Below the pieces are notes generated by a model that ran no database searches, had not been told where the DNA came from, and saw only the letters and a program-made list of their open reading frames with translations. Positions 41,236-56,808 of a DNA stretch of 64,000 nucleotides are shown here, piece by piece. The stretch covers positions 58,256 through 122,255 of the forward strand of contig CAXXUQ010000003.1 of assembly GCA_963676015.2 (NCBI GenBank), written 5' to 3'. Every line of letters starts with the position of its first letter. Positions within the stretch are counted from its first letter, which is position 1. The position numbers and the translations under genes were made by a program. This stretch comes from Prolixibacteraceae bacterium (GTDB taxonomy: Bacteria; Bacteroidota; Bacteroidia; Bacteroidales; Prolixibacteraceae).

Positions 41236-41724
41236 ATGAAAACAACAGAAAAACCCACATTACAAGACTTTCATATTGAAGGTGTAAAACACATCAACCC
41301 GGCTGATGCGCTGGAAACTATAAATAAAGGCGAAGCAGTAATGCTTGATGTACGCGAATTGAACGAAGTCAAGTTGGAAAGTGTGCCATTGGACCGGGTT
41401 ATCAATCATCCAATGTCTGTGATCATGGACCGGTTGCCATACATTGCAAAAGACCAGAATATTATTGTGGCTTGTCCCGGCGGTGTTCGTAGCGTAAAGG
41501 TTGCCAATTTACTTGTCATGCATGGCTACCCCCATGTGGCTAATCTCGACGGCGGATTAATGCTTTGGAAAGCAAAAGGATTGCCCTATGACAGCAGCAT
41601 TACTTCAGTAGGTTGTGGATGTAATTCAGGTACTCCATCAAAATCGAAATTTACATCACTTAAAATCGACTTAGGTGAAAATCTTAGTCGAAATATGGAC
41701 TTCAAAAATTTGAAGCGGATTTGA
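41236..41724 (+). CDS. rhodanese-domain protein
   Basis: MLDVRE..E, IIVACPGGVRS, VANLDGGL..W. Confidence 0.85.
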   Translation: MKTTEKPTLQDFHIEGVKHINPADALETINKGEAVMLDVRELNEVKLESVPLDRVINHPMSVIMDRLPYIAKDQNIIVACPGGVRSVKVANLLVMHGYPHVANLDGGLMLWKAKGLPYDSSITSVGCGCNSGTPSKSKFTSLKIDLGENLSRNMDFKNLKRI

Positions 41725-41753
41725 AATAAATCGGTCAGTAAAAACCAAAAATC

Positions 41754-42125
41754 ATGGAAACATCCGATTACAATAAAACTGCGCTGAAACTTTCTCCCAT
41801 GCTAAATGCTCTTTCGCATCCGGCAAGGTTGCAAATCATGTTACATCTGGCAAAGTATAATGGTTGTCAGGCTGGAAGTATTTCAGGAAAACTGCCACTT
41901 GCAAAATCAACAGTTTCGGAACATTTGAGCAAACTAAAGGAGGCAGGTTTAATTACTTGTGTTGTTGATGGAATTTGTTCAAACTATCAGATTAGCGATG
42001 AAGGTTACGAAATGGTAAAAGCAAGTTTTAATGAGTTTTTGGATCTGATGGAAGAAAGTCGGGCAAAACGCAGCGATTGTTGCCCGGTTCATCAGGGTAA
42101 CACACAAGTATTCTCGCACAGTTGA
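41754..42125 (+). CDS. ArsR/SmtB repressor 2
   Basis: LNALSHPARLQI, KSTVSEHLSKLKEAGLI; C-terminal CC. Confidence 0.88.
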   Translation: METSDYNKTALKLSPMLNALSHPARLQIMLHLAKYNGCQAGSISGKLPLAKSTVSEHLSKLKEAGLITCVVDGICSNYQISDEGYEMVKASFNEFLDLMEESRAKRSDCCPVHQGNTQVFSHS

Positions 42126-42166
42126 ATTGCTCTAAAAGAGTTGTAATTCAAAACATTATAAAAATC

Positions 42167-43069
42167 ATGGACGAACATCGCCATCACGCACCCAAAATTT
42201 CGAACCTAAACAGAGCATTTATCATTGGCATTGCCATTAATGCACTGTATGTGATTATTGAGTTTGGTGCGGGATTGTACTACGATTCGCTGGCTTTGAT
42301 TTCCGATGCCGGTCACAACCTGACCGATGTGGCATCGTTGGCCCTTGCCTTGCTTGCTTTCCGTCTGGCCAAAGTTAAGTCGAATGATAAATTCACGTAT
42401 GGGTATCGTAAATCAACCATTTTGGTTTCGTTGATTAATTCGGTGGTGCTTTTTGTCGCTATTGGCGGAATTCTATGGGAAAGTTTCAGCCGGTTGCATA
42501 ATCCGGTAGTAGTTGAAGGACTTCCCATCTCGGTGGTTGCCGGAATCGGAATTGTGATCAATGCTGTTTCTGCCTTCCTGTTTTTCAAAGACAAAGACAG
42601 CGACCTGAACGTGAAAGGAGCTTACCTGCACCTGATGGCCGATGCCGCAGTTTCGCTGGGAGTAGTGATTTCAGGAGTACTGATTTTCTTTTTCCAACTC
42701 TACTGGCTCGATTGGGTGATGAGTCTGGTGATTGTTCTGGTAATCTTCTATTCAACCTGGAACCTGTTCAAAGACAGCCTTTCCCTTACCCTTGATGGTG
42801 TACCAAAAGGCATCAACTTTAATGAGGTTGTTTCAGAAATAAAGGAAGTGGAAGGTGTTATCGACGTTCACCACCTGCATGTTTGGGCCATCAGTACCTC
42901 ACAAAATGCCATGACAGCACATATTCTCATTCCTTCGAATACAGGAATGGAACAACAAAACCTAATCAAGAATAAAATCAAACACGAGCTGGAGCATGTG
43001 AACATTCATCATGCCACGCTTGAGTTTGAAACTGAAGATGAAAATTGTATTGATACAAATGCAATTTAA
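42167..43069 (+). CDS. czcD: cation diffusion facilitator (CzcD-like) Zn/Co/Cd exporter
   Basis: SLALISDAGHNL.D, FTYGY.K..IL, GAYLHLMADA, HHLHVW.I. Confidence 0.92.
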   Translation: MDEHRHHAPKISNLNRAFIIGIAINALYVIIEFGAGLYYDSLALISDAGHNLTDVASLALALLAFRLAKVKSNDKFTYGYRKSTILVSLINSVVLFVAIGGILWESFSRLHNPVVVEGLPISVVAGIGIVINAVSAFLFFKDKDSDLNVKGAYLHLMADAAVSLGVVISGVLIFFFQLYWLDWVMSLVIVLVIFYSTWNLFKDSLSLTLDGVPKGINFNEVVSEIKEVEGVIDVHHLHVWAISTSQNAMTAHILIPSNTGMEQQNLIKNKIKHELEHVNIHHATLEFETEDENCIDTNAI

Positions 43070-43070
43070 A

Positions 43071-43847
43071 ATGAAAACTATGGAAACGACACAATCAAAT
43101 TCAGTAAAAATTAAGCAGATACTCGGTTTAAATACTTCTATGGTGGGCGTAAAATTCATCTTTTCAGAAAACGAAATTCCTTCTGGGGTTGAAAAGTTAA
43201 ACGGACACCGCTATTGCCAGGCATTGATGAAAGCACGCCATGGTTCGCCCGTCCTGCTTGATGCAGAAGGAATTGCCTGTCCGGCAGCGGCAGCCGCCTT
43301 TGGGTTTAAACCTTTGCCGGATGGTTTGAAAACTGGAAAAGGTCTGGTAGGCTTCGGCATTGTGAATAAAGATTCAACCGGAAAAGCGATGTTTGAAGGT
43401 ATGACCACTTTACCACAAGGAAAACTCAACGCATTGTATCTGTTTCCGCTCGAAGAAGCTACAATTGAGCCAGATATTGTGGTAGTGGAAGACGAAACCG
43501 AAAAGCTGATGTGGTTTGCCTTGGCTAACCTGAATGTGAAAGGCGGGCATCGGGTGGAAAGCAGTACGGCCATTTTGCAGGCAACCTGCGTGGATGCAAC
43601 AATCATTCCGTATTTACAACAAAAATTCAACATGAGCATGGGCTGTTATGGTTGCCGCGATGCAACCGACATTTGCCCCAACGAAACGGTTTTGGGTTTT
43701 CCATTCAAAGACTTTGATGCCATTGCCCAAAGCATTGAATTTCTAAGTCGGAAAGCCATTCCCAATTCAAGGGGCAAGAATGCTTTGGCTATGCTCAAAC
43801 GTAAAGAAGCAGAATCAATAAGTAAAAATGATCCTTTTACAAATTAG
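43071..43847 (+). CDS. DUF169-family protein
   Basis: RYCQALM.AR.G, CPAAA.AFG, QA.CVDA...PY, GCYGCR.AT. Confidence 0.85.
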   Translation: MKTMETTQSNSVKIKQILGLNTSMVGVKFIFSENEIPSGVEKLNGHRYCQALMKARHGSPVLLDAEGIACPAAAAAFGFKPLPDGLKTGKGLVGFGIVNKDSTGKAMFEGMTTLPQGKLNALYLFPLEEATIEPDIVVVEDETEKLMWFALANLNVKGGHRVESSTAILQATCVDATIIPYLQQKFNMSMGCYGCRDATDICPNETVLGFPFKDFDAIAQSIEFLSRKAIPNSRGKNALAMLKRKEAESISKNDPFTN

Positions 43848-43851
43848 TCTT

Positions 43852-44103
43852 ATGGAAAAATTCAAACATCTTGATGCAAAAACAATTGAATTAGCGGGTA
43901 TTGCAGCTTCAGTTGCAGGAGGTTGCCGACCTTGTCTTGATTTTCACTTTAAAAAGGCTCTTGAATTAGGTTGTTCATTGGAACAGGCTAAAGAAGCAAT
44001 CCAGCTTGGGAAAATGATTAAGCAGCGACCTATTAATGATATTTATGAACATGCTGATAAGTTAATTGCCAATAATAAATCATTTAAAATTAATGAATTA
44101 TGA
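43852..44103 (+). CDS. carboxymuconolactone decarboxylase/AhpD-family protein
   Basis: ELAGIAASVAGGCRPCLDFH.KKA..LG.S.EQ. Confidence 0.88.
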   Translation: MEKFKHLDAKTIELAGIAASVAGGCRPCLDFHFKKALELGCSLEQAKEAIQLGKMIKQRPINDIYEHADKLIANNKSFKINEL

Positions 44104-44504
44104 AAAAATCTATTTTGTTTTTTCTGGTTGCTTTTCTGACCATCTCAGGAGCAACATTCGGCAAATCGAAAGAAAACGTTGAAGTCCTTTATTTTAAAGC
44201 AAAACAATGTGCCTGTAAAACCATGACGTGCAACGCACTTGAGGATCAGGTAAAATCTGTAATCAATAAGGAATTCCCAGACAAGAACATCATATTTAAA
44301 CGAGTTTGGCTGAATGAAAAGGAAAACGATGCACTTATTCAAAAATATAGTGCCAAACCACAAACAGTTGTCTTGGTAAAAATGAAAAAAGACAAAGAAA
44401 CAGTAACCGAATTGACAGAAATTGTGAAAGATTTTGCAACGAAACAAAACAAAGAAAAGTTTGAAACGGAGCTGAAAGAAAAAATCAGTGCAAACTTAAA
44501 GTAA
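44100..44504 (+). CDS. periplasmic thioredoxin-like protein (ArsF-like paralogue)
   Basis: Signal peptide; VLYFKAKQCACKTMTCNALE. Confidence 0.65.
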   Translation: MKKSILFFLVAFLTISGATFGKSKENVEVLYFKAKQCACKTMTCNALEDQVKSVINKEFPDKNIIFKRVWLNEKENDALIQKYSAKPQTVVLVKMKKDKETVTELTEIVKDFATKQNKEKFETELKEKISANLK

Positions 44505-44528
44505 TCTATCACTCTGAAATAAAGTAAA

Positions 44529-45284
44529 ATGCTGTATATCATAGTCGCAGTTATTATCGCTGTCGCCTCTTTCGTATTTGCCATGCTGGGTTTGGGTGGT
44601 GGAATGGTTTATGTCCCCGTTCTCAACTGGGCCGGATTCGATATGAAGGAGGTCGCCATTCCGTTGGGGTTGTTGCTCAATGGATTAAATACTGCCCTGG
44701 TTCTTATTCCGTTTGCCCGCAAAAAACTGGTGGATTGGAAAGGGGGTTCGGTTATGGCTACTACCGCCCTGATTGCTTCTCCATTGGGAGCAATGATGAG
44801 CGGTCATGTTCCGGTGCAAACCCTGAAAATATTGTTTGCCGCGATGGTGGTTGCAGCCGCACTGCGTACACTTTGGGCTTCGAAACAAGCCGAACCTGAA
44901 GCGATGATGCCCTTGAAAAAGCGGAGTATAATTGGATTTTTTACTGGAAGTTTTGCCGGTTTTATTGGCGGGATGTTGGGACTGGGAGGTGGTTTTATTA
45001 TCGCTCCAATCCTGATGATGATGGGCTACAAAACTAAGGAAGCTGCGGCTACAACAGCATTGGTAGTCACTTTTTCATCGTTCTCCGGATATTTTGGGCA
45101 CGTTGCCCAAGGAGAAATGAACTGGCCTTTAACTATCGCGGTGGTCATTGCTGTGATTATTGGTTCGCAGCTTGGCGGAAGGTACATGACACAAAAAGCG
45201 AAGTCTAAGCAAGTAAAAATGATCTATGCCATCGTGCTCTTGTTGATTGCTATAAAAATGGTATTTGATGTCTTTTATAAATAA
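44529..45284 (+). CDS. TauE/SafE-family exporter
   Basis: Duplicated GLGGG..(Y/I).P motifs; polytopic. Confidence 0.9.
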   Translation: MLYIIVAVIIAVASFVFAMLGLGGGMVYVPVLNWAGFDMKEVAIPLGLLLNGLNTALVLIPFARKKLVDWKGGSVMATTALIASPLGAMMSGHVPVQTLKILFAAMVVAAALRTLWASKQAEPEAMMPLKKRSIIGFFTGSFAGFIGGMLGLGGGFIIAPILMMMGYKTKEAAATTALVVTFSSFSGYFGHVAQGEMNWPLTIAVVIAVIIGSQLGGRYMTQKAKSKQVKMIYAIVLLLIAIKMVFDVFYK

Positions 45285-45302
45285 ATATAAAAAATTAAGA
45301 AA

Positions 45303-45905
45303 ATGATTGATCCAAAAGATTGGCTCGAATTCGGGCAAAAATTTCACGGGCATAAATGTCCTGCCATGCCAATGGGCTTAAGAGTTGGCGCAGCCGCAAT
45401 GAACGCACTAGGTGTAGAACGTGCCAAAGACGGCCAGTTGGTTGCCTTTGTTGATTTGGGCGAAGACCATTGTGCCACTTGTTATGGCGATGGATTGCAG
45501 GTAATCATGGGAACAACCTTTGGTAAAGGCAATCTCAAAAAAACGCACAAAGGTAAATGGGCCGTTACTGTGGTTGATCGGGCTACCGGACGTGCTGTAA
45601 GAGTCACCCCAAAAGCCGAAGCCATGCTGAACAACAAAAAGACAGCATTTTTTACCGATTATCGGATGTTAGGCAAACCTGCCAGTACTGTGCCTGCCGA
45701 AATAGTTGATCCATTGGTAACCAATGTAATGAATTCACCAGTCGAAATGCTTCTTAACGTTTCTCCAATTTTCGAATACAAACTTGAACCAAAAAAAGAC
45801 AGTTTCGATGGTTTTGTTTGTGAAGAGTGTGGCGAAATGACCGTGATGGAATATGGTCGAATAAAAGGCGATAAAAAAGTTTGCATTGATTGTGCAGCGA
45901 AGTAA
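45303..45905 (+). CDS. FmdE-family protein with C-terminal Zn finger
   Basis: FHGHKCPAMPMGLR, C..C..DG.Q...GTT.GKGN, CEECGE...CIDC. Confidence 0.9.
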   Translation: MIDPKDWLEFGQKFHGHKCPAMPMGLRVGAAAMNALGVERAKDGQLVAFVDLGEDHCATCYGDGLQVIMGTTFGKGNLKKTHKGKWAVTVVDRATGRAVRVTPKAEAMLNNKKTAFFTDYRMLGKPASTVPAEIVDPLVTNVMNSPVEMLLNVSPIFEYKLEPKKDSFDGFVCEECGEMTVMEYGRIKGDKKVCIDCAAK

Positions 45906-45918
45906 CAAAATAATAAAA

Positions 45919-46275
45919 ATGGAAAATTCACCAAATTATCAAATTGTAAGTTGCAGCGGAGCTTCAAATACCGGGAAATTTACCGATGAAGTTGCCCGGA
46001 TGTTATCTGCCAGCGGCGATGCCAGTATGATATGTCTTGCTAAAGTGGCCATAAGCGACCAACCGCTTATCCAGAAAGTAAAGGAGCAAAAGACCAGAAT
46101 TGTAGTATTAGACGGCTGCCCTATTAACTGCGCAGAAAAACTCCTCGAAAGAGAAGGGATTACCGATATTATCCATATCAATACAACCGATTTCGACATT
46201 GTTAAAGGCAAAACACCTTTTAGCATTGAGAAAGCAAATGAAATTGTTGAGCACATAAAAAAAATAGCACACTAA
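45919..46275 (+). CDS. DGC-domain putative zinc-binding protein
   Basis: SCSGASNTG, MICLA, VLDGCPINCA. Confidence 0.9.
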   Translation: MENSPNYQIVSCSGASNTGKFTDEVARMLSASGDASMICLAKVAISDQPLIQKVKEQKTRIVVLDGCPINCAEKLLEREGITDIIHINTTDFDIVKGKTPFSIEKANEIVEHIKKIAH

Positions 46276-46308: not shown

Positions 46309-46728
46309 ATGAGAACAAAAGTTATTCAAAAACTATCATTGGTATTGATTTTACTTGCATTTATCCAAATAACCAGCTATGCCCAAAACACAGCACAGGA
46401 TAAAACGCAGAAACAAGCAACAGAACAGCAAAAGAATGCTGTGAAATACAAAGTAACTTTTATTGAACTTGGTTCAGTGCGCTGTATTCCTTGCCAGAAA
46501 ATGCAATCCGTAATGAAATCAATCGAAGAAAAATACGGCAATCAGGTAAAAGTGGTTTTTCATGACGTATGGACTCCCGACGGGAAACCCTTTGGAGTTC
46601 AATATGGCATTGAGTCAATCCCCACCCAGATATTTTTAGATGAAAATGGCAAGGAGTTTTCACGGCATGTGGGTTATTTCCCAGAAGAAGAACTGGTAAA
46701 AGTCCTGAAACAAAAAGGTGTAAAATAA
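46309..46728 (+). CDS. exported thioredoxin-family protein
   Basis: FIELGSVRCIPCQKM, IPTQIFLD..GKE..RHVG. Confidence 0.9.
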   Translation: MRTKVIQKLSLVLILLAFIQITSYAQNTAQDKTQKQATEQQKNAVKYKVTFIELGSVRCIPCQKMQSVMKSIEEKYGNQVKVVFHDVWTPDGKPFGVQYGIESIPTQIFLDENGKEFSRHVGYFPEEELVKVLKQKGVK

Positions 46729-46820
46729 ATATACTTTGCCCTCTAAAAGAAACATTTAGTTACAATCCGGTTTGCGAAAAAAGTAAAATTCAGTTATTAA
46801 CCTTTAAACATCAATTTATT

Positions 46821-47594
46821 ATGAAATCAAAATCATTAGGATTTATTGGTGGTGGCCGAATCACCAAAATCTTCCTTCAGGCTTTGGCCAATAAGAAACT
46901 TGAACTTAATTCGGTAGTGGTATTCGATACAAACGCTGATGTACTTGCAGCCCTGAAACAACAGTTTCCAAACATTGTTGTTGCCGAAACTCCGGAACAA
47001 GCAGCGCAACAGCCGACTGTTTTTATTGCCCTGCACCCGCCGATGATCATGGAATCACTTGGAAAAATTGCCGAAATAATTTCTTCTGATGCCTTGGTAA
47101 TTTCGCTTGCCCCAAAGATCAATATTGAAAAGATCGCATCAAAACTAAAGACATCGAACATTGTTCGCATGATCCCAAATGCCACTTCATTTATTAACGA
47201 AGGGTACAATCCGGTAACTTTTGCAGCAGACTTCAATGAAACGGAAAAAACTGAAGTGTTGGATTTACTTCAATTATTGGGAACAACTTTCGAAGTAGCC
47301 GAATCAAAACTGGAAGCCTACGCCCTGCTTTCGGCCATGCTGCCCACTTATTTCTGGTTCCAGTGGAATGAATTGACAAAATTAGGTGATCCAATGGGTC
47401 TGACAGAAGAAGAAAGCAATGTTGCCATACAACAAACCTTACAGGCCGCGATGAATTTGTACTTCGAATCAGGACTTTCGCCAGAAAAGGTAATGGATTT
47501 AATACCGGTGAAACCAATCGGTGAGCACCAGACACAGATTACCGAAATTTATCAAACCAAACTAATGGGATTGTTTGAGAAGATTAAACCATAA
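46821..47594 (+). CDS. NAD(P)-binding oxidoreductase, pyrroline-5-carboxylate reductase-like
   Basis: GFIGGGRIT Rossmann motif, IVRMIPNA.S. Confidence 0.8.
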   Translation: MKSKSLGFIGGGRITKIFLQALANKKLELNSVVVFDTNADVLAALKQQFPNIVVAETPEQAAQQPTVFIALHPPMIMESLGKIAEIISSDALVISLAPKINIEKIASKLKTSNIVRMIPNATSFINEGYNPVTFAADFNETEKTEVLDLLQLLGTTFEVAESKLEAYALLSAMLPTYFWFQWNELTKLGDPMGLTEEESNVAIQQTLQAAMNLYFESGLSPEKVMDLIPVKPIGEHQTQITEIYQTKLMGLFEKIKP

Positions 47595-47596
47595 AA

Positions 47597-48073
47597 ATGG
47601 TAAAGAAGATTTTCCTCTGGGTAGTATATGTTTTGCTGTTCGGGTTTATAATCATCGGATTTGCCTTAAAAGAGAACATGAACAACTACCTTTCGAAAAT
47701 GATGAAAGCACAAGCCGGTTCCGAAATTATTAATTCGGGATCGGCCTATGTCGATTCTACCTTCAACTACAAAAAAAATAGGCTGAATTATCAGCTTACT
47801 TTTCTCGAATTTGGGTCAACAGGTTGTTCTGCCTGTAAACGCATGGAGAAAGTGATGGATGAAATCAGTAAAAAATACCCACAAACCGTAAACGTAGTTT
47901 TCCTGAATATTTTGAAACCCGGAAATCAGGTTTTAATGAAATACTTTGGTGTTGCATCAATCCCAACACAGGTTTTACTTGACAAGGAAGGAAATGAGTA
48001 TTTCAGGCATACCGGTTATTATTCCACAGAAGAAGTTGATACGGAAATTATCAAAAAACGGAATATATATTAA
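47597..48073 (+). CDS. membrane-anchored thioredoxin-family protein
   Basis: FLEFGSTGCSACKRM, IPTQVLLDK.G.E.FRHTG. Confidence 0.88.
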   Translation: MVKKIFLWVVYVLLFGFIIIGFALKENMNNYLSKMMKAQAGSEIINSGSAYVDSTFNYKKNRLNYQLTFLEFGSTGCSACKRMEKVMDEISKKYPQTVNVVFLNILKPGNQVLMKYFGVASIPTQVLLDKEGNEYFRHTGYYSTEEVDTEIIKKRNIY

Positions 48074-48228
48074 AGACGAACACTTCAATCCGGATTTGAT
48101 TTTCTGCGGCCATTCATTCATACTAATTTTTCAATTAAGGATCAAAAATTTTATTAAAATATATGTCGCAGATATACGTCGCATTAATATTAAACGTATA
48201 TTTACGTCGTAATTTAAAATTCAAGGTC

Positions 48229-48564
48229 ATGGTAATAGCAAAAACAGAACTTTTCGACGAAGTGCTTCAAATAAGAGCCAGTTTATTCAAAGCACTTGCA
48301 CACCCAGCACGTCTGCAAATTCTTCAATTCCTGGCCGAAACAAAAAACTGTATTTCAGGTGATATTTCGGAAGAACTTCCTTTAAGCCGTACAACTGTTA
48401 ATCAGCATTTGAAGGAATTAAAAGATGCTGGATTGATTCGTGGACATGTTGAAGGAGTAAAAACAAACTATTGTCTCGATTATGAAAAGGTAGTAGAGAT
48501 GAAGGAAATTCTTTCCGGATTCCTGGATGATATTCAATTACCGGAAAATTTCTCCTGTAAATAG
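48229..48564 (+). CDS. arsR: ArsR/SmtB repressor 3
   Basis: FKALAHPARLQIL..LA....CISGDI...LPL...TV.QHL.ELK.AGLI.G. Palindrome ACGTA-TATT-TACGT at 48194-48207. Confidence 0.9.
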   Translation: MVIAKTELFDEVLQIRASLFKALAHPARLQILQFLAETKNCISGDISEELPLSRTTVNQHLKELKDAGLIRGHVEGVKTNYCLDYEKVVEMKEILSGFLDDIQLPENFSCK

Positions 48565-48621
48565 CCACATTTATTGGCAATTTTCAAAAAATTCCTGATA
48601 ACTATTTGAATACATTAAGCT

Positions 48622-48834
48622 ATGAAAATATTAATCAGTTATGTAATCCAAGGGGAAAAGAGTCATCATTATAACTCTGAAATCGTGGATCTAAAATTAA
48701 ATGCTCCTTTATATTCTCCTGAACCTCGACAATCGGAAATTGAGATTGAAATAGTCAAATGGGCTGAAATGAGGCAAAGTAAATTGAAAGGTAGTGAAAA
48801 AATCATAGTGCTGAAAACATTAAAAACCAATTAG
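48622..48834 (+). CDS. small hypothetical protein
   Basis: 70-aa ORF lying in operon orientation. Confidence 0.45.
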   Translation: MKILISYVIQGEKSHHYNSEIVDLKLNAPLYSPEPRQSEIEIEIVKWAEMRQSKLKGSEKIIVLKTLKTN

Positions 48835-48879
48835 GCAGTTTAAAAAAATATCCCAAAAACAACTTAAAATCAAAAAATC

Positions 48880-49722
48880 ATGAACTCAATGAAAGGATCA
48901 CTTTTATCATTAACTGTAATTAGCTTATTGGCATTAACTGCCTGCGGCAATACCAATGCTGGCACCAAACAGGCAAGTAAGGGAACCGAAGCGACCCAAA
49001 GCGCTCAACCTGAACAGCAAGCAACATTACCTGCAAGCAACTCAAAAATTCAGGCCGATCTGGAAAAGGCTAAAAAAGATGGAAAGGCTGTTTTTGTAGT
49101 AGTAACCGGAACTGGGGTAACTGAAACCGATAAGGCAACAACAATAGCCAAAGGCGCCAATGCCATCTATAAAAATGCAGCCGTAGTCCAAATGGACAGA
49201 GACGATGCCGCCAATGCACAATTGGTAGCCGAATGGAGGTTAGCCGGTGCGCCGCTTCCCCTGGTATTAGTTGTTTCACCCAAAGGTCAGTTAACAGGTG
49301 GAATGGTACTGGCTCAGGCTACTGCTGAAACTATTGCTGCCCTTGTGCCATCACCCAAACTGGAAGAAGTGCAGGAAGTTATAAGCAATAAAAAACCTGC
49401 TTTTGTGGTCTTCACAAAAAAAACATACAGCGATCGTGCAGAAGTACTTCAGGCATGTAAAGAAGCCGTAACTATTTTAAAGAATAATGCTGCGATTGTT
49501 GAAGTGGATTTGGATGACATGAAGGAAGCTAGTCTTATTGACAGGCTTGAAGTGGACAAATCATCAAAGGAAACTACCACACAAGTTGTCAATGTACAGG
49601 GACAAATTGCCGGAACTTCATCAGGGTTGCCCGATGCAGCCAAATTAGCCGCTGCTGCTATTGCACCTCCCAAAAGCGGATGCTGCCCAGGAGGAGCCGG
49701 ATCTTCAGGTTGCGCTAAGTAA
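48880..49722 (+). CDS. lipoprotein with tandem thioredoxin-like regions and a Cys-rich tail
   Basis: Lipobox LTAC; C-terminal SGCCPGGAGSSGCAK. Confidence 0.7.
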   Translation: MNSMKGSLLSLTVISLLALTACGNTNAGTKQASKGTEATQSAQPEQQATLPASNSKIQADLEKAKKDGKAVFVVVTGTGVTETDKATTIAKGANAIYKNAAVVQMDRDDAANAQLVAEWRLAGAPLPLVLVVSPKGQLTGGMVLAQATAETIAALVPSPKLEEVQEVISNKKPAFVVFTKKTYSDRAEVLQACKEAVTILKNNAAIVEVDLDDMKEASLIDRLEVDKSSKETTTQVVNVQGQIAGTSSGLPDAAKLAAAAIAPPKSGCCPGGAGSSGCAK

Positions 49723-49736
49723 AAAAGTTCGAAATT

Positions 49737-50954
49737 ATGAGATTAACAGATTTAACATTAAAGGAGCTTTGGCACAGAAAATCGCAACTTGTATCTGGTT
49801 TGTTAGCCATTACGTTGGGCATTGGTGTGATTGTAGGTATCCGTTCTTTCTCTGTTGTGTCAGAGAAAGCAGTAGCGGTGAACCTCGACAATCTGGGGGC
49901 AAATGTATTAGTACTCCCACAAGCAGCCAGTGTTGACAATTATTATTCTGCCGACATTGATGCCCCAACCTTTCCTGAAAGCTATGTGGAAAGAATAGTT
50001 ACGTCCACTTTGCCCGGTGTCGATAATTTATCACCCAAGTTAACAAGAAGGGTTAAAATCGGCAATGAAAACATTGTGTTGACAGGTATTCTGCCTAAAA
50101 GCGAAATAGCATCAAAACCTATCTGGCAACAGGGAGGTTTAATGACTAAAAAGGTGGCAGCAAGTTGCGCCCCAAAACCCGGTGCCGAACCTGCCAAATA
50201 TCTGGATGCAAAACTTCAACGAAAGGGAATTGACTCTTTGGCAGAAGCAGATTGTTTTATCGGTTCAGCAGTTGCCCAAAGACTCAATCTAAAGGAAGCT
50301 GGTACACTGACCATCGAGGGCAAGATCTTTACAGTTGTGAAGGTTTTACCTGAAACCGGAACAGTTGATGATGACCGCGTATTTGCAAATCTGCACACGG
50401 TTCAGACACTTTTGGGTACAGGAGAACAAATCAGCGCCATTGAAATTATGGGTTGTTGTCAGGAAATTTCAGAAGGCCTTTTGGGAAAACTCCGGAATGT
50501 ATTGCCTGATACGCGCATTACCACCATTGGACAAATTGTTTCTACTCAAATAGAAACCAATAAAATGATGAATAAAATATCGATGGTATTTCTCATCATC
50601 ATCCTTTTTGTAGGTAGCATATCTATTGGTAATTACATCTGGGCAAACGTGAACGAACGCCGGAAAGAAATTGGAATCCTTCGCATGATTGGTTACCACA
50701 AAAGACATATTTATTATATCCTGGTGCTTAAAGGTATCATCATTGGTCTTTTGGGTGGAATTGCCGGTTATATTCTTGGAACTTTAGGCGCAATCTGGCT
50801 TGGGCCACAATTTGCCGGAATCGAAGTCAGTCCAATTTATACACTGTTACTCGTTTCTATCGCCCTTTCTATTTCTATTTCAATCTTGGGATCGGTTATT
50901 CCTGCTTATCTGGCCGGAAAAATTGAACCATTTTCAAACATGCAGGAGGATTAA
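49737..50954 (+). CDS. MacB/FtsX-family ABC permease
   Basis: L.EL..RK...L....ITLG, periplasmic domain containing EIMGCC, NVNERRKEIGILR.IG. Confidence 0.9.
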   Translation: MRLTDLTLKELWHRKSQLVSGLLAITLGIGVIVGIRSFSVVSEKAVAVNLDNLGANVLVLPQAASVDNYYSADIDAPTFPESYVERIVTSTLPGVDNLSPKLTRRVKIGNENIVLTGILPKSEIASKPIWQQGGLMTKKVAASCAPKPGAEPAKYLDAKLQRKGIDSLAEADCFIGSAVAQRLNLKEAGTLTIEGKIFTVVKVLPETGTVDDDRVFANLHTVQTLLGTGEQISAIEIMGCCQEISEGLLGKLRNVLPDTRITTIGQIVSTQIETNKMMNKISMVFLIIILFVGSISIGNYIWANVNERRKEIGILRMIGYHKRHIYYILVLKGIIIGLLGGIAGYILGTLGAIWLGPQFAGIEVSPIYTLLLVSIALSISISILGSVIPAYLAGKIEPFSNMQED

Positions 50955-50956
50955 TT

Positions 50957-51670
50957 ATGCTTATACAACTGAAAAATCTCACGAAGACCTATCAACATCA
51001 CGATGGGGCAATCAATGCAGTTGATGACCTCTCACTCGATATTCCTAAAGGTTCTTTTGTAACCATAACAGGAGCTTCAGGTTCAGGCAAAACAACTTTA
51101 TTGCTGATTCTTGGTGGTTTATTACGTCCAACTTCAGGAAAGATGAGCTATAACTGTAAGGAAATAAACCTGCACAATGACGAAGAATTAGCCAATTTCC
51201 GCAGCAATCATGTCGGGTTTGTGATGCAGAGCTTTGCCCTTGTACCATATCTTACTGCTATTGAAAATATCATGATTGCCTTGAACGTGAAAAACAGAAA
51301 CACGACTGAAAATAGAAAAAGGGCTCTGGAATTGTTAGAATGGGTCGGTTTGGAAGACCGAACCACTCATTACCCAAAGGAACTTTCGGCGGGGCAACAA
51401 CAGCGCGTGGCCATTGCCCGTTCCTTGGCAAACAACCCCGATTTGCTTCTTGCTGATGAACCCACCGGAAATCTTGACCCCGGATTGTCGGAAGAAATAC
51501 TTGGTATTTTGAAAGAGATCAACCTGAAACAAAAAACGACTGTCGTGATGGTTACCCATAGCCCAATGGCTGCTGAATATGGTGATACGAAAATTCAGCT
51601 TAAAGATGGAAAATTAAATAGCCTTCATTTGAAGGAAGTTAAGCTAGACATTGAAGTTTCTGTAAATTAA
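50957..51670 (+). CDS. LolD/MacB-type ABC ATPase
   Basis: GASGSGKTT, LSAGQQQRVAIAR, LLADEPTGNLD, VTH. Confidence 0.95.
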   Translation: MLIQLKNLTKTYQHHDGAINAVDDLSLDIPKGSFVTITGASGSGKTTLLLILGGLLRPTSGKMSYNCKEINLHNDEELANFRSNHVGFVMQSFALVPYLTAIENIMIALNVKNRNTTENRKRALELLEWVGLEDRTTHYPKELSAGQQQRVAIARSLANNPDLLLADEPTGNLDPGLSEEILGILKEINLKQKTTVVMVTHSPMAAEYGDTKIQLKDGKLNSLHLKEVKLDIEVSVN

Positions 51671-51678
51671 ACTCGAAC

Positions 51679-52026
51679 ATGATGAAACTCGAAATATTTG
51701 AACCATCGCTTTGTTGCGATAGCGGTGTTTGCGGGCCAGAACCTGATAAAGTACTTATTGACCTGCAAAACACTATTCAGTTGTTAAAAAAGGCTGGCGT
51801 GGAAACCAAACGGTACGCCATTAACCAGGCCCCGATTGTGTTTTTACAAAATACGGTTGTCAGGGATTTTATAAAGGCAAACGGACCGGGCAAGTTACCG
51901 CTGGTATTGCTCGATAATCAAATCATCAAAACTGAAGGTTATCCGACAATTGATGAACTCAAAACGCTTATCCCGGAATTGAACGGAATAAAACCAGACA
52001 CGAAAATTCTTGGAATTTTTAGCTGA
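51679..52026 (+). CDS. arsD: arsenite metallochaperone
   Basis: IFEPSLCCDSGVCGP, LP..L.D..I...GYPT..EL. Confidence 0.92.
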   Translation: MMKLEIFEPSLCCDSGVCGPEPDKVLIDLQNTIQLLKKAGVETKRYAINQAPIVFLQNTVVRDFIKANGPGKLPLVLLDNQIIKTEGYPTIDELKTLIPELNGIKPDTKILGIFS

Positions 52027-52036
52027 CCCTAACAAG

Positions 52037-52351
52037 ATGGAAACAAAAATCTTTTTGGTTGAACTTTTCACTATTCCACAAGCGGCTTGTGATTCCGGTA
52101 AAGCAAACTGGATACAGGTTGGTGAAATGGTAAAAAATCAACTCGAAACCAGGTTTGGGAAGTTGATTGAATTCAAACATGTTGAATTCATGTCCGAACA
52201 ATGGTTTGAGAATCAAAAAGCACAGGAAATGCTTGAAAATGGCGAGGTAAATTTTCCTTTCGTTTTGGTGGATGGAGAAATTGCCAGTGCCGACAAAAAA
52301 ATTAATGTATCCAAGGTAAACCGGGCGATACAATTGAAAATACAACAATGA
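52037..52351 (+). CDS. small thioredoxin-like hypothetical protein between arsD and arsA
   Basis: Single Cys (AACDS); FPFVLVDGE resembles the cis-Pro strand of the Trx fold. Confidence 0.6.
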   Translation: METKIFLVELFTIPQAACDSGKANWIQVGEMVKNQLETRFGKLIEFKHVEFMSEQWFENQKAQEMLENGEVNFPFVLVDGEIASADKKINVSKVNRAIQLKIQQ

Positions 52352-54162
52352 CACAATACATATTTTTTTCAGGAAAAGGCGGCGTGGGAAAAACCACAAT
52401 GGCAGCCACAACAGCAGTTTATCAGTCGGGCAAAGGAAAAAGAACTTTGCTTGTATCAACCGACCCGGCAGGAAACCTGGGCGATATTTTTGAACGCAAG
52501 GTAGGTGTTGAACCTACACTGGTTGCTCCAAATCTGTCGGTAGCCCAAATGGATTCGGATGCCATAACAGATGCCTACAAAAACCGGATGCTCGAACCAC
52601 TATCTGCCATTCTTGATGAACTGGCGCTGGCGCAGGTCAAAGAAGAGTTTAACGGAGGTTGCACGGTAGAGATTGCCACATTCGATAAGTTTACCGATTT
52701 TCTGGGTGATGAAACTTACGACCTGATCGTATTTGATACCGCTCCAACGGGCCATACACTCCGATTAATGACTTTGCCCAATGAGTGGGATAAATACATC
52801 AAGAAAAGTTCGGAAGGAAGTGGGCAAACCTGTATCGGCCCGGTTTCACAAATTGAGGGTGCAAGGGCAAAATATGCACATGCAGTTCAGATGATGCAGG
52901 ATGCCAATCGTACCATTGTGTATCTGGTTAGCCGTCCCGAAAAAACTTCGGTTTACGAAACCTTCAGGGCGCGGACGGAGCTTGAAAAAACAGGCATCCA
53001 TAATTTTCACCTTATTATCAATGGCGTTTATCCCAACCATGGAGCAACATCAGGAATTTTTGGGAAGTTGGCCGAAAATCAGAAGATTTACATCAAAGAA
53101 CTTCGAAGCAAATTTCCTGACGATACCTCAGAAGTGCCAATGCAACAATCGGAAGTAAAAGGTGCCGGTAATATTGCTTTGTTGGGACAAATAGCTTTTG
53201 AGAAGAAAGTCGCGACTTTACACAGTGGCTTTGCCCAAAGTAAACCATTTAACGAGTTTGCGTCTGCTGAAACGCTGACCCAATTACTGGAAAAGAAAAA
53301 TCACAGTCGTATCGCAATTCTCACAGGAAAAGGAGGAGTGGGGAAAACGGTAACAGCCTGCACTGTGGCCATGAAGTTGGCGGAGAAAGGCAAAACTCTG
53401 CTTTTCACTACCGATCCTGCTGCACATATTGGGCAAGTACTCGAAACCAATGTTACCCATATTCCGGTGAATGTAACAGGTAACCTCTGGGCCGTAAACA
53501 TCGACCAAAAAGAAGCGGTTGAAGAATATCGCCATAAAATATTAGAGGATGCAAAGTCAAACGGATACACTCCGGAGTTGATTGCCGCACTCGCAGAAGA
53601 ACTGGAATCACCATGTACCGAAGAAATTGCCATTTTCGAGCAATTTGCCAATTTATTGAACGAACCCGAATGGGAATATTTTGTGCTCGACACAGCGCCA
53701 ACTGGCCACACGCTGCGCCTTTTGGAACTGCCTTTTGAATACAAGAAGCAGCTCGACATGAAACTGAAAGGAAGCATTGATTCTGCAATTACCGAAAATG
53801 CAGGAGATGCAAGTACTAAAATTGAAAACTTAATTAGCAGACTGAAAGATCCGGAGGAAGCGACGTTCCTGTTGGTTGCTTATCCCGAATTCACTCCGCT
53901 TCACGAAAGTTTCCGAGCCATGAAAGATTTGGAAAGAGTTGGCATTCAGGCACAGGGCGTATTTTTGAACCATATCCTGAATGAACAGGATTGTACCGAT
54001 GATTTTTCAATCGAACGGTGGAAGCTTCAGCAACATTATTTACATCAGGCCAGTGAAATTTATCATCCAAAGCCATTGTTCTCCATACCGCTTCAATCTT
54101 CCGAAATTATAGGTATTGGCCAGGTAAAAGCCCTTTCAGAATTGATTTTCAACAAAAAATAA
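52348..54162 (+). CDS. arsA: arsenical pump-driving ATPase
   Basis: Two GKGGVGKT P-loops, two DTAPTGHT motifs, metal-site Cys in GGCTVE, TCIGP and PCTEE. Confidence 0.96.
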   Translation: MTQYIFFSGKGGVGKTTMAATTAVYQSGKGKRTLLVSTDPAGNLGDIFERKVGVEPTLVAPNLSVAQMDSDAITDAYKNRMLEPLSAILDELALAQVKEEFNGGCTVEIATFDKFTDFLGDETYDLIVFDTAPTGHTLRLMTLPNEWDKYIKKSSEGSGQTCIGPVSQIEGARAKYAHAVQMMQDANRTIVYLVSRPEKTSVYETFRARTELEKTGIHNFHLIINGVYPNHGATSGIFGKLAENQKIYIKELRSKFPDDTSEVPMQQSEVKGAGNIALLGQIAFEKKVATLHSGFAQSKPFNEFASAETLTQLLEKKNHSRIAILTGKGGVGKTVTACTVAMKLAEKGKTLLFTTDPAAHIGQVLETNVTHIPVNVTGNLWAVNIDQKEAVEEYRHKILEDAKSNGYTPELIAALAEELESPCTEEIAIFEQFANLLNEPEWEYFVLDTAPTGHTLRLLELPFEYKKQLDMKLKGSIDSAITENAGDASTKIENLISRLKDPEEATFLLVAYPEFTPLHESFRAMKDLERVGIQAQGVFLNHILNEQDCTDDFSIERWKLQQHYLHQASEIYHPKPLFSIPLQSSEIIGIGQVKALSELIFNKK

Positions 54163-54178
54163 TTCAAAAAATATCATC

Positions 54179-54466
54179 ATGAAAATTACAGAACAAGCGC
54201 AGGTCGAGTTGAAAAAAGCCCTTGATAGTTTTGACAAACCGGGTTCCGGAATTCATGTTTACAGCACACAAGGTTGCTGTGGCCCATCCATACAAATGGA
54301 CATTGCCACGCAGATAGGAAATGGGGAAACCGCAATTTCACTTGAAGGCATCGACTTCTATGTAGCAAGCGATTTAATTCCTAAACTGGCTGAAGTTACC
54401 ATTGAATTTGGCTCAAATGGATTCCGTTTAACTGGATTGAAAAAAGCGAGCAGTGGTTGTTGCTGA
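54179..54466 (+). CDS. HesB/IscA-like small Cys-rich protein
   Basis: QGCCGPSI.M, GI.FYV; C-terminal SGCC. Confidence 0.7.
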   Translation: MKITEQAQVELKKALDSFDKPGSGIHVYSTQGCCGPSIQMDIATQIGNGETAISLEGIDFYVASDLIPKLAEVTIEFGSNGFRLTGLKKASSGCC

Positions 54467-54500
54467 TAAAAACATATTCAAATTTTTAAATTATAACCCT

Positions 54501-54926
54501 ATGAAAGTATTAATTCTTTGCACAGGCAACAGTTGCCGTAGCCAAATGGCACATGGTTTTTTACAGTCGTTCGATCCAAACATTACCGTTTGTTCAGCAG
54601 GAACCGAAGCATCCGGAAAGCTGAACCAAAAAGCGGTTGCCGCCATGAAAGAGATCGGCATTGATATTAGTAACCACACTTCAGATTCAGTCGATTTGTA
54701 CCTCGATCAGGAATGGGATTATGTGATCACCGTTTGCGGTGGTGCCAACGAAAACTGCCCGGCTTTTTTCGGAAAAGTGAAACACCGCTTGCACATTGGC
54801 TTTGATGATCCGTCACATGCAGTTGGAACCGATGAATTCATCTGGAGTGAATTTATCCGGGTGAGGGACGAGATTAAAGAAGGCTTCTGGAAGTTTTACA
54901 GTGAAGAAATCAAGCCACAATTATGA
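54501..54926 (+). CDS. arsC: arsenate reductase (LMW-PTP family)
   Basis: LILCTGNSCRSQMA, ITVCGGA.ENCP, FDDP. Confidence 0.95.
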   Translation: MKVLILCTGNSCRSQMAHGFLQSFDPNITVCSAGTEASGKLNQKAVAAMKEIGIDISNHTSDSVDLYLDQEWDYVITVCGGANENCPAFFGKVKHRLHIGFDDPSHAVGTDEFIWSEFIRVRDEIKEGFWKFYSEEIKPQL

Positions 54927-55735
54927 AAGCCGAAGATTTAAAATTGGTAGTACAGGAGAAATATGGGGCAATAGCTAATCAGAGTTTATTGATGAACCAG
55001 CCGCAATCGTCTTGTTGTGGAACTTCCGGCTGTTGTGGAGAACTTGAATTTAGCATGATTGGCGACGAATACAAGAATATCGAAGGCTATAATCCTGATG
55101 CAGATTTAGGCTTAGGATGTGGACTTCCAACTCAGTTTGCCGACCTGAAAATTGGTGATCATGTCCTTGATTTAGGAAGTGGTGCCGGAAATGATTGTTT
55201 TGTAGCCCGCGCCATTGTTGGAGAAACAGGTAAAGTAACAGGTCTGGATTTTACAGATGCGATGGTTACCAAAGCCATCGGAAATAATCTGAAACTTGGG
55301 TTCACGAATGTTGAATTTGTGCAGGGCGATATTGAAGAAATGCCATTGCCGGACAACAACTTTGATGTGATTGTATCAAACTGTGTTTTAAATTTAGTTC
55401 CCGATAAAAACAAAGCTTTTGCCCAAATAATGCGGGTATTGAAGCCAGGTGGGCACTTTTGTGTTTCCGACGTGGTCATCAAAGGTGAACTGCCCCAAGC
55501 ACTGCGAAAAGATGCTGAAATGTATGTTGGGTGTGTTGCCGGAGCTGTTTCAATGAATGAGTATATCGACATCATTAACAGTAAAGGATTTAAAACCGTC
55601 ACGATCCACAAGCTAAAAGCAATATTAATTCCTGACGAAGTTCTAAATGACTATCTATCCAATTCCGAAATTGAAGATTTCAAAAATGGAGATACGGGAA
55701 TATTCAGTATTACAATTTCAGGTTACAAACAATAA
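54923..55735 (+). CDS. arsM: arsenite S-adenosylmethionine methyltransferase
   Basis: [37 protein letters not shown]. Confidence 0.95.
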
Positions 55736-55758: not shown

Positions 55759-56808
55759 ATGAGCACAGCAAAACAACTTTCATTTTTTGACCGCTACCTT
55801 ACTTTATGGATATTTCTGGTCATGTTTGCCGGGGTTGTCGTTGGCTTTGGGTTCCCTGAAATTTCTGGTTTCTGGAATTCATTAAGCTCTGGAACTACCA
55901 ATATTCCCATTGCCATTGGACTGGTGCTGATGATGTATCCGCCGCTGGCCAAAGTGAAATACGAAAAATTACCACTGGTTTTCAAAAACCTGAAACTTCT
56001 TAGTTTATCACTGACACAAAACTGGATTGTCGGACCGTTGGTCATGTTCTTTTTGGCAATCGTTTTTCTGCACAATCAGCCGGGATTAATGGTTGGTGTT
56101 ATCCTGGTCGGATTAGCCCGATGTATTGCAATGGTGTTGGTTTGGAATGACCTCGCGAAAGGCGATACTGAACTTGCTGCCGGATTGGTTGCATTCAATG
56201 CCATTTTTCAGGTGTTTTTGTATTCAGTTTATGCCTATGTGTTTATTACCCTTTTACCTCCACTGTTTGGGTTAAAAGGAGCTGTTGTTGAAGTTTCGAT
56301 TTCAGAAATTGCAATTACGGTTTTGATTTATCTGGGAATACCTTTTGCCGCCGGGTTGATCTCAAACCTCATACTCCGCAATTGGATGGGTAGTGAATGG
56401 TACTTCTCCAAATTTATTCCTAAAGTTTCCTTGTTAACACCAATAGCATTGCTATTTACCATTTTTGTAATGTTCTCTCTGAAAGGTGAAAAAATCATTG
56501 AATTGCCTTTAGATGTGCTTCGGGTTGCAATACCTTATACCATCTATTTTGCCTTCATGTTTTTTAGTACCTTCTTTGCTGCCAAATGGATGGGCGAAGG
56601 TTACGAGAAATCAACAACGATGGCTTTTACCGCAGGAAGTAACGATTTTGAATTGGCAATTGCCGTGGCTATCGCAGTTTTCGGGATCAACTCTCAAGCT
56701 GCTTTTGCAACTGTAATTGGGCCATTGGTTGAAGTGCCGGTAATGATTGCATTGGTCAATGTGGCTTTTTATTTTAAAAGGAAATATTATTCAAGCAATA
56801 TGGTTTAA
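55759..56808 (+). CDS. acr3: Acr3 arsenite efflux permease
   Basis: [50 protein letters not shown]. Confidence 0.96.

Follow-up and report, generated by a model that had tools for sequence, protein, structure and literature searches.

The stretch of DNA analysed here (the window) comprises 64,000 nt from a Prolixibacteraceae bacterium (GCA_963676015.2, contig CAXXUQ010000003.1, positions 58,256-122,255, + strand). According to its list of open reading frames (ORFs), every gene from 46.3 to 56.8 kb lies on the + strand, and this region holds an arsenic-resistance (ars) operon in which genes for a lipoprotein, an FtsX/MacB/Lol-type permease and an ATP-binding cassette (ABC) ATPase precede arsD (Table 1). 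These four co-oriented genes are separated by gaps of 14, 2 and 8 bp. The first three make up a conserved module without a name, almost confined to arsenic operons, which, to judge from its sequence, is probably an ATP-driven system for the handling of arsenite in the cell envelope. The genes named in an initial annotation of the window were all found at their coordinates in the ORF list and translations, including the arsD start (51679) 8 bp past the ATPase stop codon. That annotation had proposed an undescribed periplasmic arsenic module, which is the best-supported reading in light of cysteine conservation, ars linkage and the negative results from the literature and family models.

In the AlphaFold model of the lipoprotein (pLDDT 76.6), the disordered residues 1-52 comprise the signal peptide, the lipobox cysteine Cys22 and a tether (23-52), and are followed by two confident thioredoxin-fold domains (53-157 and 157-265). 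The tail (270-280) is again disordered, and the tail region carries Cys268, Cys269 and Cys278. Foldseek returned a two-domain protein disulfide oxidoreductase as the best match (1a8l, E 3.8e-8), and alignment to thioredoxins with VIA-align gave Z-scores of up to 12.7 (rmsd 2.6 Å over 100 residues) in the second domain (157-265) and up to 10.6 in the first (53-157). No Pfam or NCBIfam model matched the lipoprotein, a sub-threshold hit to Thioredoxin_6 being the sole hint, and the named homologues among the 293 detected in total are labelled hypothetical or thioredoxin-domain proteins, none of them with a functional name. The statistics of the tail were drawn from the 120 best homologues (53-100% identity). 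Exactly three cysteines fall within the last 16 residues of 119 of these, with the body diverging to 53% identity, and they are spaced as C-x3-C-x4-C (93 homologues), CC-x8-C (24), CC-x9-C (1) or C-x4-C-x4-C (1). A fixed number of cysteines at varying spacing in a disordered tail fits a flexible tri-thiolate ligand, unlike a structural disulfide. The body lacks a CxxC motif in all 120 homologues, so that the protein, with its thioredoxin fold, does not appear to be a redox-active thioredoxin. The lipobox Cys22 is invariant in an alignment of 13 sequences that extends down to 36% identity. A search of 401 representative genomes of the phylum, with a single protein as query, gave only three weak matches (E 1e-11 to 3e-5) and was too insensitive for mapping.

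The permease model consists of a first transmembrane helix (TM1), a periplasmic domain (~41-272) of mixed alpha/beta structure between TM1 and TM2, and helices TM2-4. Pfam places an FtsX domain at residues 283-398 (7.5e-20) and a MacB_PCD match at residues 22-233 (5.8e-10; 40.2 bits, cut-off 27). The best structural matches in Foldseek were LolE (9rlc_E, 5.4e-16) and MacB (5gko, 3.7e-15), with LolC, Spr0695, HrtB, YtrF, YbbP, BceB and FtsX also among the hits; MacB 5gko is also the best sequence match in the PDB (2.2e-10, over the TM part). On the basis of the fold matches to LolE/LolC, MacB, HrtB, YtrF, YbbP, BceB and FtsX, the modelled permease is a type VII ABC permease. The features of this class are all present: an FtsX four-helix membrane domain, a periplasmic domain between TM1 and TM2, and a cognate nucleotide-binding domain (NBD) with intact motifs. 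The translation of the ATPase contains Walker A, the Q-loop, an LSAGQ signature, Walker B with the catalytic Glu, and the H-loop. Its top NCBIfam rows are LolD, FtsE, DarD and MacB, with every equivalog cut-off missed. NCBIfam matches of the SaoA/SaoT type are far below their cut-offs. Type VII systems relay ATP-driven movement to periplasmic domains, with no passage of substrate through the inner membrane, and usually have dedicated periplasmic partners such as LolA, EnvC, MacA and TesA (PMC12646458, PMC5985334).

The EIMGCC motif (C240, C241) described in the initial annotation is located in the periplasmic domain of the permease, as are C144 and C173. In the model, C144 lies in a flexible loop (128-163) and C240-C241 at the end of a strand (234-238). 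C144, C240 and C241 are invariant in 16/16 ars-linked orthologues (C173 in 15/16) and remain so in an alignment of 21 sequences, some of them only 34-40% identical. The Cys-Cys pair noted initially is thus present but incomplete as a description, since both proteins carry a cysteine triad. Conservation of the cysteines in homologues had been suggested as a check on the periplasmic module, and the outcome was positive, both for the lipoprotein tails (119/120) and for the invariant triad of the permease.

To follow the linkage to ars genes, 77 loci were collected by pattern scans (14 from GTDB genomes and 63 from metagenomes, not de-replicated), and the window proteins were mapped onto them by tblastn. 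ArsR is encoded directly 5' of the lipoprotein gene in 49 of the 62 loci with at least 600 bp of upstream sequence, and the end of an arsD-orf-arsA-HesB block takes this place in another 8, which together make 57/62. The permease gene comes next after the lipoprotein gene in 52 of the 54 loci with room for it. A core ars gene (arsD, arsA, arsC, arsM or acr3) was found downstream in 29 of the 34 loci that extend at least 2.5 kb past the ATPase gene, and core ars genes are present on 35 of the 40 loci of at least 8 kb. The module was seen ahead of arsDA, behind arsDA, ahead of arsC-acr3 and ahead of arsM-acr3, and these several gene orders imply that the association with ars genes has outlived repeated rearrangement. 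The same genome carries a second copy in the order arsR-module-arsC-acr3 (G000:C5:1626414-1631260; L005:6415-11263), with a lipoprotein 84% and a permease 97% identical to those of the window; next to this copy lie arsP, a ProC-like gene and an arsE/F/G-like set. In a genome of another family the order is arsR-module-arsM-acr3, with the lipoprotein 36-39% and the permease 66% identical. Linkage in homologues, the other check suggested at the outset, was accordingly borne out across the 77 loci and several gene orders.

The module is rare and patchy in distribution, occurring in 3 of 61 related genomes according to a search with the lipoprotein. Within the same loci, identity to the window is 77-97% for the permease vs 46-91% for the lipoprotein. 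The patchy spread and the well-conserved permease fit a mobile context, as does an integrase encoded just downstream of the operon, at 57259. It is conceivable from such mobility, with permeases 77-97% identical across taxa, that the cysteines merely form structural disulfides, that the ABC system acts on or exports an unrelated envelope substrate, and that the ars linkage reflects co-transfer on mobile elements. We consider this highly improbable: the linkage persists through at least four gene orders and down to 36-39% lipoprotein identity, the ArsR gene directly upstream is the prevailing arrangement, an odd number of cysteines resides in a disordered tail with varying spacing, a vicinal CC forms disulfides poorly, and reducing thioredoxins are encoded next door.

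The features of the locus are listed in Table 1. The most likely start of arsR is the ATG at 48229, which gives a protein of 111 aa matching its paralogue, rather than the listed ORF start at 48163; this upstream ATG falls inside a conserved repeat or palindrome block. L005 and L011 keep the block 5' of arsR, and L012 and L013 have a related palindrome, ATGTCG...CGACAT, which makes the block a candidate ArsR operator by its position and sequence. Its inverted repeat is unlike the GTTCGT-N6-ACGAAC palindrome given in the initial annotation for the other arsR genes of the island, and the ArsR paralogues of the island may use separate operators. Between arsR and the lipoprotein gene (within 48565-48879), the window contains an insertion of ~250 nt that is missing from L011 (a 91% identical locus), from the paralogous locus L005 of the same genome, and from L012. 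The 70-aa ORF in this insertion, which had initially been listed along with the neighbouring genes, is therefore placed outside the module.

Table 1. Genes and other features of the ars region of the window. Positions are those of the window.
Feature	Position	Strand	Evidence and remarks
Exported thioredoxin (CIPC)	46309..46728	+	Pfam Thioredoxin_2 2e-12; homologue adjoins ArsR upstream in L012, L013, L052, L058 and others
ProC-like NADP oxidoreductase	46821..47594	+	Pfam F420_oxidored 3e-9; found again 5' of the module in many loci, L005 among them
Membrane-anchored thioredoxin (CSAC)	47597..48073	+	Pfam Thioredoxin_2 3.4e-11; adjoins ArsR upstream in L016, L018, L037, L038, L043, L051
Candidate ArsR operator, inverted repeat ATATACGT-N14-ACGTATAT and repeated ACGTCG words	48163..48215		Read from the sequence, just 5' of arsR
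arsR (ArsR/SmtB repressor, 111 aa)	48229..48564	+	HTH_5 1.6e-12; NCBIfam HTH_metalloreg 69 bits, cut-off 55
70-aa ORF in ~250-nt insertion, outside the module	48622..48834	+	No family match in Pfam or NCBIfam
Lipoprotein, 280 aa	48880..49722	+	Signal peptide, lipobox LTAC (Cys22), tail GCCPGGAGSSGCAK
FtsX/MacB/Lol-type permease, 405 aa	49737..50954	+	Pfam FtsX 7.5e-20, MacB_PCD 5.8e-10
ABC ATPase (LolD/MacB-NBD type), 237 aa	50957..51670	+	ABC_tran 7.2e-33; LolD 221 bits, cut-off 308
arsD	51679..52026	+	Pfam ArsD 1.8e-30; NCBIfam chaperon_ArsD 103 bits, above cut-off
ArsD-like small protein without Cys triad	52010..52351	+	Weak ArsD match 1e-3; kept between arsD and arsA in many loci
arsA	52348..54162	+	Duplicated GKGGVGKT and DTAPTGHT motifs; orthologues of 76-96% identity in related loci
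HesB/IscA-like protein with GCC end	54179..54466	+	Fe-S_biosyn 7.7e-5; NCBIfam IscA_HesB_Se 30 bits, below cut-off
arsC (LMW-PTP type)	54453..54926	+	CTGNSCRS motif in translation; orthologues in related loci
arsM	54923..55735	+	Translation; orthologues in related loci
acr3	55759..56808	+	Translation; orthologues in related loci

The + strand showed no terminator-like site from 47.9 to 52.1 kb, and a scan for sigma-70 promoters was uninformative (13 sites vs 10.4 expected), its consensus being different from Bacteroidota promoters. A 1464-nt contig of a biofilm metatranscriptome (~97% identical, 51531-52994) runs from the ATPase gene through arsD and the ArsD-like ORF into the first part of arsA. 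Other contigs of this metatranscriptome match the ATPase gene and, free of mismatches, the 3' portion of the permease gene, and the lipoprotein gene is uncovered. The bridging contig gives a weak hint of co-transcription, in which DNA carry-over is possible and neither transcription nor induction is shown. Sequencing runs from mine drainage, freshwater, groundwater and other sources that contain only minor portions of the window were set aside as indications of habitat.

Several neighbouring genes recur with the module. Upstream, the ProC-like reductase is flanked by two thioredoxins that are exported or anchored (46309-48073). Downstream, arsD, the ArsD-like ORF without the Cys triad, arsA and the HesB-like ORF with its GCC end form a block that is kept together in many related loci, which marks the ArsD-like and HesB-like proteins as regular companions of ArsA in this lineage. 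The gap between the ATPase gene and the next ars gene holds unrelated inserts in relatives, such as a P-type ATPase (L016:12660-14564) and a tandem universal-stress protein (L011:11904-12791), and the junction 3' of the ATPase gene appears to accept insertions. In 16 loci, a secreted 131-aa protein of the Ig-like DUF1573 family is encoded directly 3' of the ATPase gene (for example L013:11744-12115, L014:11836-12231, L015:3772-4098, L016:11967-12365 and L024:11836-12228). It has three cysteines, one in G-x-C-x-F and two in SCGCT, and may be an optional fourth component of the module. This gene is absent from the window; one at L005:5789-6184 precedes the arsR of the second copy in this genome. 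Further upstream, a train of genes at 41236-46275 encodes a rhodanese, a second ArsR, a CDF transporter, a DUF169 protein, an unassigned 134-aa ORF, TauE, FmdE with a DksA-type zinc finger, and a DGC-domain protein; no membrane-fusion or outer-membrane protein was found in this train.

Among described systems, LolCDE-LolA resembles the module in the size and fold of the permease (four TM helices, a periplasmic domain between TM1 and TM2), with LolE 9rlc_E as top Foldseek match, in its separate LolD-like ATPase, in the lack of a membrane-fusion protein, and in the involvement of a dedicated periplasmic protein and of lipoproteins. This likeness raises the possibility that the lipoprotein is itself the cargo, in that a Lol-like ABC system detaches the lipoprotein, either loaded with As(III) or freshly synthesised, from the inner membrane for passage to the outer membrane or into vesicles as a sacrificial sink. 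Such a role would be in line with LolE and LolC complexed with lipoproteins as the best structural matches, with lolCE and LolD as the top NCBIfam matches, with the lipobox cysteine that is invariant in the clade, and with the fact that Lol systems need no adaptor. However, the scores are far under the Lol cut-offs (lolCE 44 vs 362 bits, LolD 221 vs 308), there is one permease gene instead of LolC + LolE (or a single LolF), and the triad in the periplasmic domain, a further difference from Lol, would be left without a role. One 280-aa protein per arsenic atom would also be a costly sink, and the partner encoded at one distant locus (L028) looks membrane-anchored by a C-terminal hydrophobic stretch, not lipidated. 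The genome has ~14 other MacB_PCD matches available for housekeeping, most of them fitting this model far better (up to 172 bits vs 40 for the module permease). We therefore regard the cargo role as very unlikely. The module also departs from LolCDE-LolA in that its partner is a tandem thioredoxin fold and not a LolA barrel, and in that it is accessory, ArsR-controlled and mobile (3/61 related genomes), not housekeeping.

The module shares with MacAB-TolC the MacB_PCD and FtsX domains, and MacB is among the top matches in sequence and in fold. MacB works on periplasmic substrates by mechanotransmission (PMC5985334). Unlike in MacB, the NBD is not fused to the permease, the two being encoded by separate genes. 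No gene for MacA/HlyD or TolC was found among the ORFs of 41.2-56.8 kb or in the paralogous and related loci examined, although a distant host-encoded adaptor is possible. The label 'MacB-type' given in the initial annotation thus holds for the fold; it does not extend to the gene set, with its separate ATPase and no MacA/TolC gene, and LolE and LolC are structural matches as close as MacB. FtsEX-EnvC and YbbAP-TesA, which are listed among the partner-dependent type VII systems (PMC12646458), likewise combine an ABC mechanotransducer with one cognate periplasmic protein encoded adjacent to it, and YbbP and FtsX are fold matches of the permease. In contrast to these systems, the partner in the module is neither an enzyme nor an enzyme activator, both proteins carry cysteines of a metal-binding type, and the context is arsenic resistance.

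Two further comparisons are drawn as analogies. ArsD-ArsA, encoded in the same operon, is alike in that a small three-Cys thioredoxin-fold protein passes As(III) on to a cysteine triad of an ATP-driven machine, as may also happen in the module. The module would differ in being periplasmic, with its energy relayed across the membrane, and its cysteines are in a C-terminal tail vs near the N-terminus of ArsD. A duplicated periplasmic ArsD was considered as the origin of the lipoprotein and was dropped as homology, hhalign of the family against ArsD giving a probability of 0.1%; it is kept as an analogy. Periplasmic metallochaperones such as CusF, which serves CusCBA, offer a comparable case of a small periplasmic carrier that feeds a thiophilic ion to an envelope pump. 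The module differs from CusF-CusCBA in having an ABC and not an RND pump, no encoded outer-membrane duct, a presumed metalloid substrate and an unrelated fold.

As(III) favours three-thiolate sites, as in ArsD (Cys12/13/18), ArsA (Cys113/172/422) and ArsR. With regard to function, the lipoprotein, permease and ATPase may constitute one ArsR-controlled envelope machine that serves as a periplasmic thiol relay for As(III), and probably Sb(III), a proposal to which we give slightly less than an even chance. What the analysis shows is the layout of the genes, the folds, the conserved cysteines, the place in the operon and the linkage to ars genes; As(III) binding, hand-off, ATP-driven release and the direction of transport are inferred, as follows. 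The lipoprotein would be suspended in the periplasm by its tether of ~30 residues, and its flexible three-Cys tail would capture As(III) as a tri-thiolate, like ArsD in the cytoplasm. On docking to the periplasmic domain of the permease, thiol exchange would move As(III) to the C144/C240/C241 triad, with C144 on a mobile loop and C240-C241 at the strand end. Binding and hydrolysis of ATP by the cytoplasmic ATPase would then be relayed through the membrane by type VII 'mechanotransmission' and pull the triad apart, so that As(III) is released away from the cell or to a further acceptor. The neighbouring exported or anchored thioredoxins could keep the periplasmic thiols reduced. As a net effect, As(III) that Acr3/ArsA pump into the periplasm or that leaks in from outside would be kept off the reduced periplasmic thiols of these anaerobes. 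Sequence does not separate capture, export and sensing, and this applies equally to the functional options that the initial annotation had offered.

A number of observations weigh against this thiol relay. Homology of the lipoprotein to ArsD (PF06953) was found neither by Pfam and NCBIfam nor by hhalign (0.1%). Prediction of a complex between lipoprotein residues 53-280 and permease residues 42-272 gave a score of 0.46 vs 0.01 for the best control, with a partner pLDDT of at least 85 and runs that share at least 52% of their contacts. In the benchmark of this score, 58 of 80 solved complexes and 2 of 110 mismatched pairs came up to the mark, but only 7 of these 80, and both mismatches, did so with a score of 0.60 or less; the predicted binding thus lends weak support. 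The loop with C144 has a pLDDT below 50, and the model does not fix its nearness to C240/C241. Core ars genes are missing from 5 of the 40 long loci: two of these have ArsR only, joined in one case by a DUF1573 gene, a third has arsP in addition to ArsR, and the other two, contigs that probably overlap, hold nothing recognisable. Relatives of the permease with Cys motifs at the same place are also encoded away from ars genes, and one has a P-type ATPase, an RND pump and His-rich proteins as neighbours. An adaptor or outer-membrane gene was not found in the locus (ORFs 41.2-56.8 kb), which leaves no visible exit route, and As(OH)3, being uncharged, should need no help to pass through porins, so that the gain from ATP-driven handling in the periplasm is not obvious. 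Given the lack of an exit gene and the free diffusion of As(OH)3, the benefit may lie in shielding reduced periplasmic thiols and not in bulk export.

A different substrate is envisaged if the module, by analogy with HrtBA (haem) and YbbAP (hydrophobic compounds), pulls lipophilic trivalent organoarsenicals, such as methylarsenite and aromatic arsenicals in reduced form, out of the inner membrane at its outer leaflet, with the cysteines as a trap and the lipoprotein as acceptor. Type VII ABC systems that extract from the membrane have been described (PMC12646458), HrtB and YbbP are among the structural matches of the permease, and arsM, arsP or the arsEFG-like set accompany the module in many loci, the window included. 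Many other loci, however, have only arsC and acr3 beside the module (L005, L031, L033, L071), and the permease cysteines are periplasmic in the model, not intramembrane. The three thiols on each protein would also suit As(III) better than the two-thiol MAs(III), to judge from the chemistry of ArsR and ArsM. Extraction of organoarsenicals therefore seems unlikely.

The permease belongs to a much wider family. An exhaustive HMMER search returned 25,231 relatives, with one representative cluster at 60% identity and the other full-length matches at no more than 41%. Many of these carry other Cys motifs at the position of GCC, namely GCGC, C-x2-CP or C-x-C. At the four distant loci read (permease identity 29-41%), the permeases retain a Cys motif where that of the window has GCC, a partner of 260-400 aa with the same thioredoxin-like sequence signature is encoded directly upstream in all four, and Cys clusters are present in the partners of three, C-terminal in L026 and L027 and internal in L028. 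The partner in L026 (5157-7916) has the tail QCCDDPNC, and its neighbours are the P-type ATPase, RND pump and His-rich proteins mentioned above. L027 (1-4920) encodes two partners and two permeases, with two GCG...C forms of the tail, and the L028 (4279-7290) partner has internal CPYC and CTC motifs. The L025 (5116-7899) partner is without a cysteine cluster. The recurrence of a thioredoxin-like partner at these loci speaks for the thiol relay. For the distant relative P0176, the partner has a CPYC motif and a C-terminal anchor, and the neighbours are uninformative. None of the four distant loci (L025-L028) is linked to ars genes.

Since Cys-motif relatives occur outside ars contexts, the chemistry may concern thiophilic metals in general. 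The module might be a general detoxifier or buffer of such metals (Cd, Hg, Cu, Zn, Sb), recruited to ars operons in this clade only, with arsenic not its specific substrate. This would agree with the GCC, GCGC, CxxCP and CxC motifs at the same permease position across the large family, with the surroundings of the relative that has the QCCDDPNC tail, with the many metals sensed by ArsR/SmtB regulators, and with the CDF transporter encoded 6 kb upstream in the window. We find it distinctly unlikely for the module itself, whose clade has arsenic-gene neighbours in 35 of 40 long loci with differing arrangements and whose upstream regulator accompanies arsC, acr3, arsD and arsA, not metal pumps. 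The Cys-bearing permeases and thioredoxin-like partners of the distant loci place the ars module as one branch of a broader, unnamed class, and the sequences suggest that envelope systems for thiophilic metals form a large family that is still without a name. Returning to the thiol relay, its boldest form is a first ATP-driven periplasmic arm of arsenic resistance, in which a type VII ABC mechanotransducer would spend cytoplasmic ATP to open a periplasmic tri-Cys As(III) site fed by a 'fishing-line' lipoprotein metallochaperone with a Cys3 tail, as the periplasmic equivalent of ArsD-ArsA. It would be one branch of a much larger, unrecognised family of Cys-studded FtsX permeases that, together with partners of the thioredoxin fold, deal with thiophilic metals and metalloids in the envelope. 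As a whole, this remains a tentative proposal, possible and yet rather doubtful.

To our knowledge, the described ars transporters (ArsB, Acr3, ArsP, ArsJ, ArsK, ArsAB) all move arsenicals across the cytoplasmic membrane. We know of no described ars gene that handles envelope arsenite, nor of work that addresses the fate of As(III) in the diderm periplasm. Full-text searches of the literature found no link of an ABC, FtsX/MacB or lipoprotein component to ars operons, which does not prove that the system is unpublished. A look at a review of ars genes (PMC6205960) likewise turned up no such ABC, FtsX or lipoprotein component. Accordingly, the module is a candidate new ars component, built as a machine of the known type VII ABC kind. 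If this is true, arsenic resistance in anaerobic Bacteroidota and other phyla would gain a further step in its pathway, and the module would extend the short list of jobs of type VII ABC mechanotransducers to a metalloid and provide a function for an unnamed protein family of 293 detected members. The Cys3 tail could also find application as a natural tag that binds As(III) or as part of a biosensor. As a mobile module with a second copy in the same genome, it would also be of relevance to arsenic cycling in sediments and to the annotation of metagenomes.

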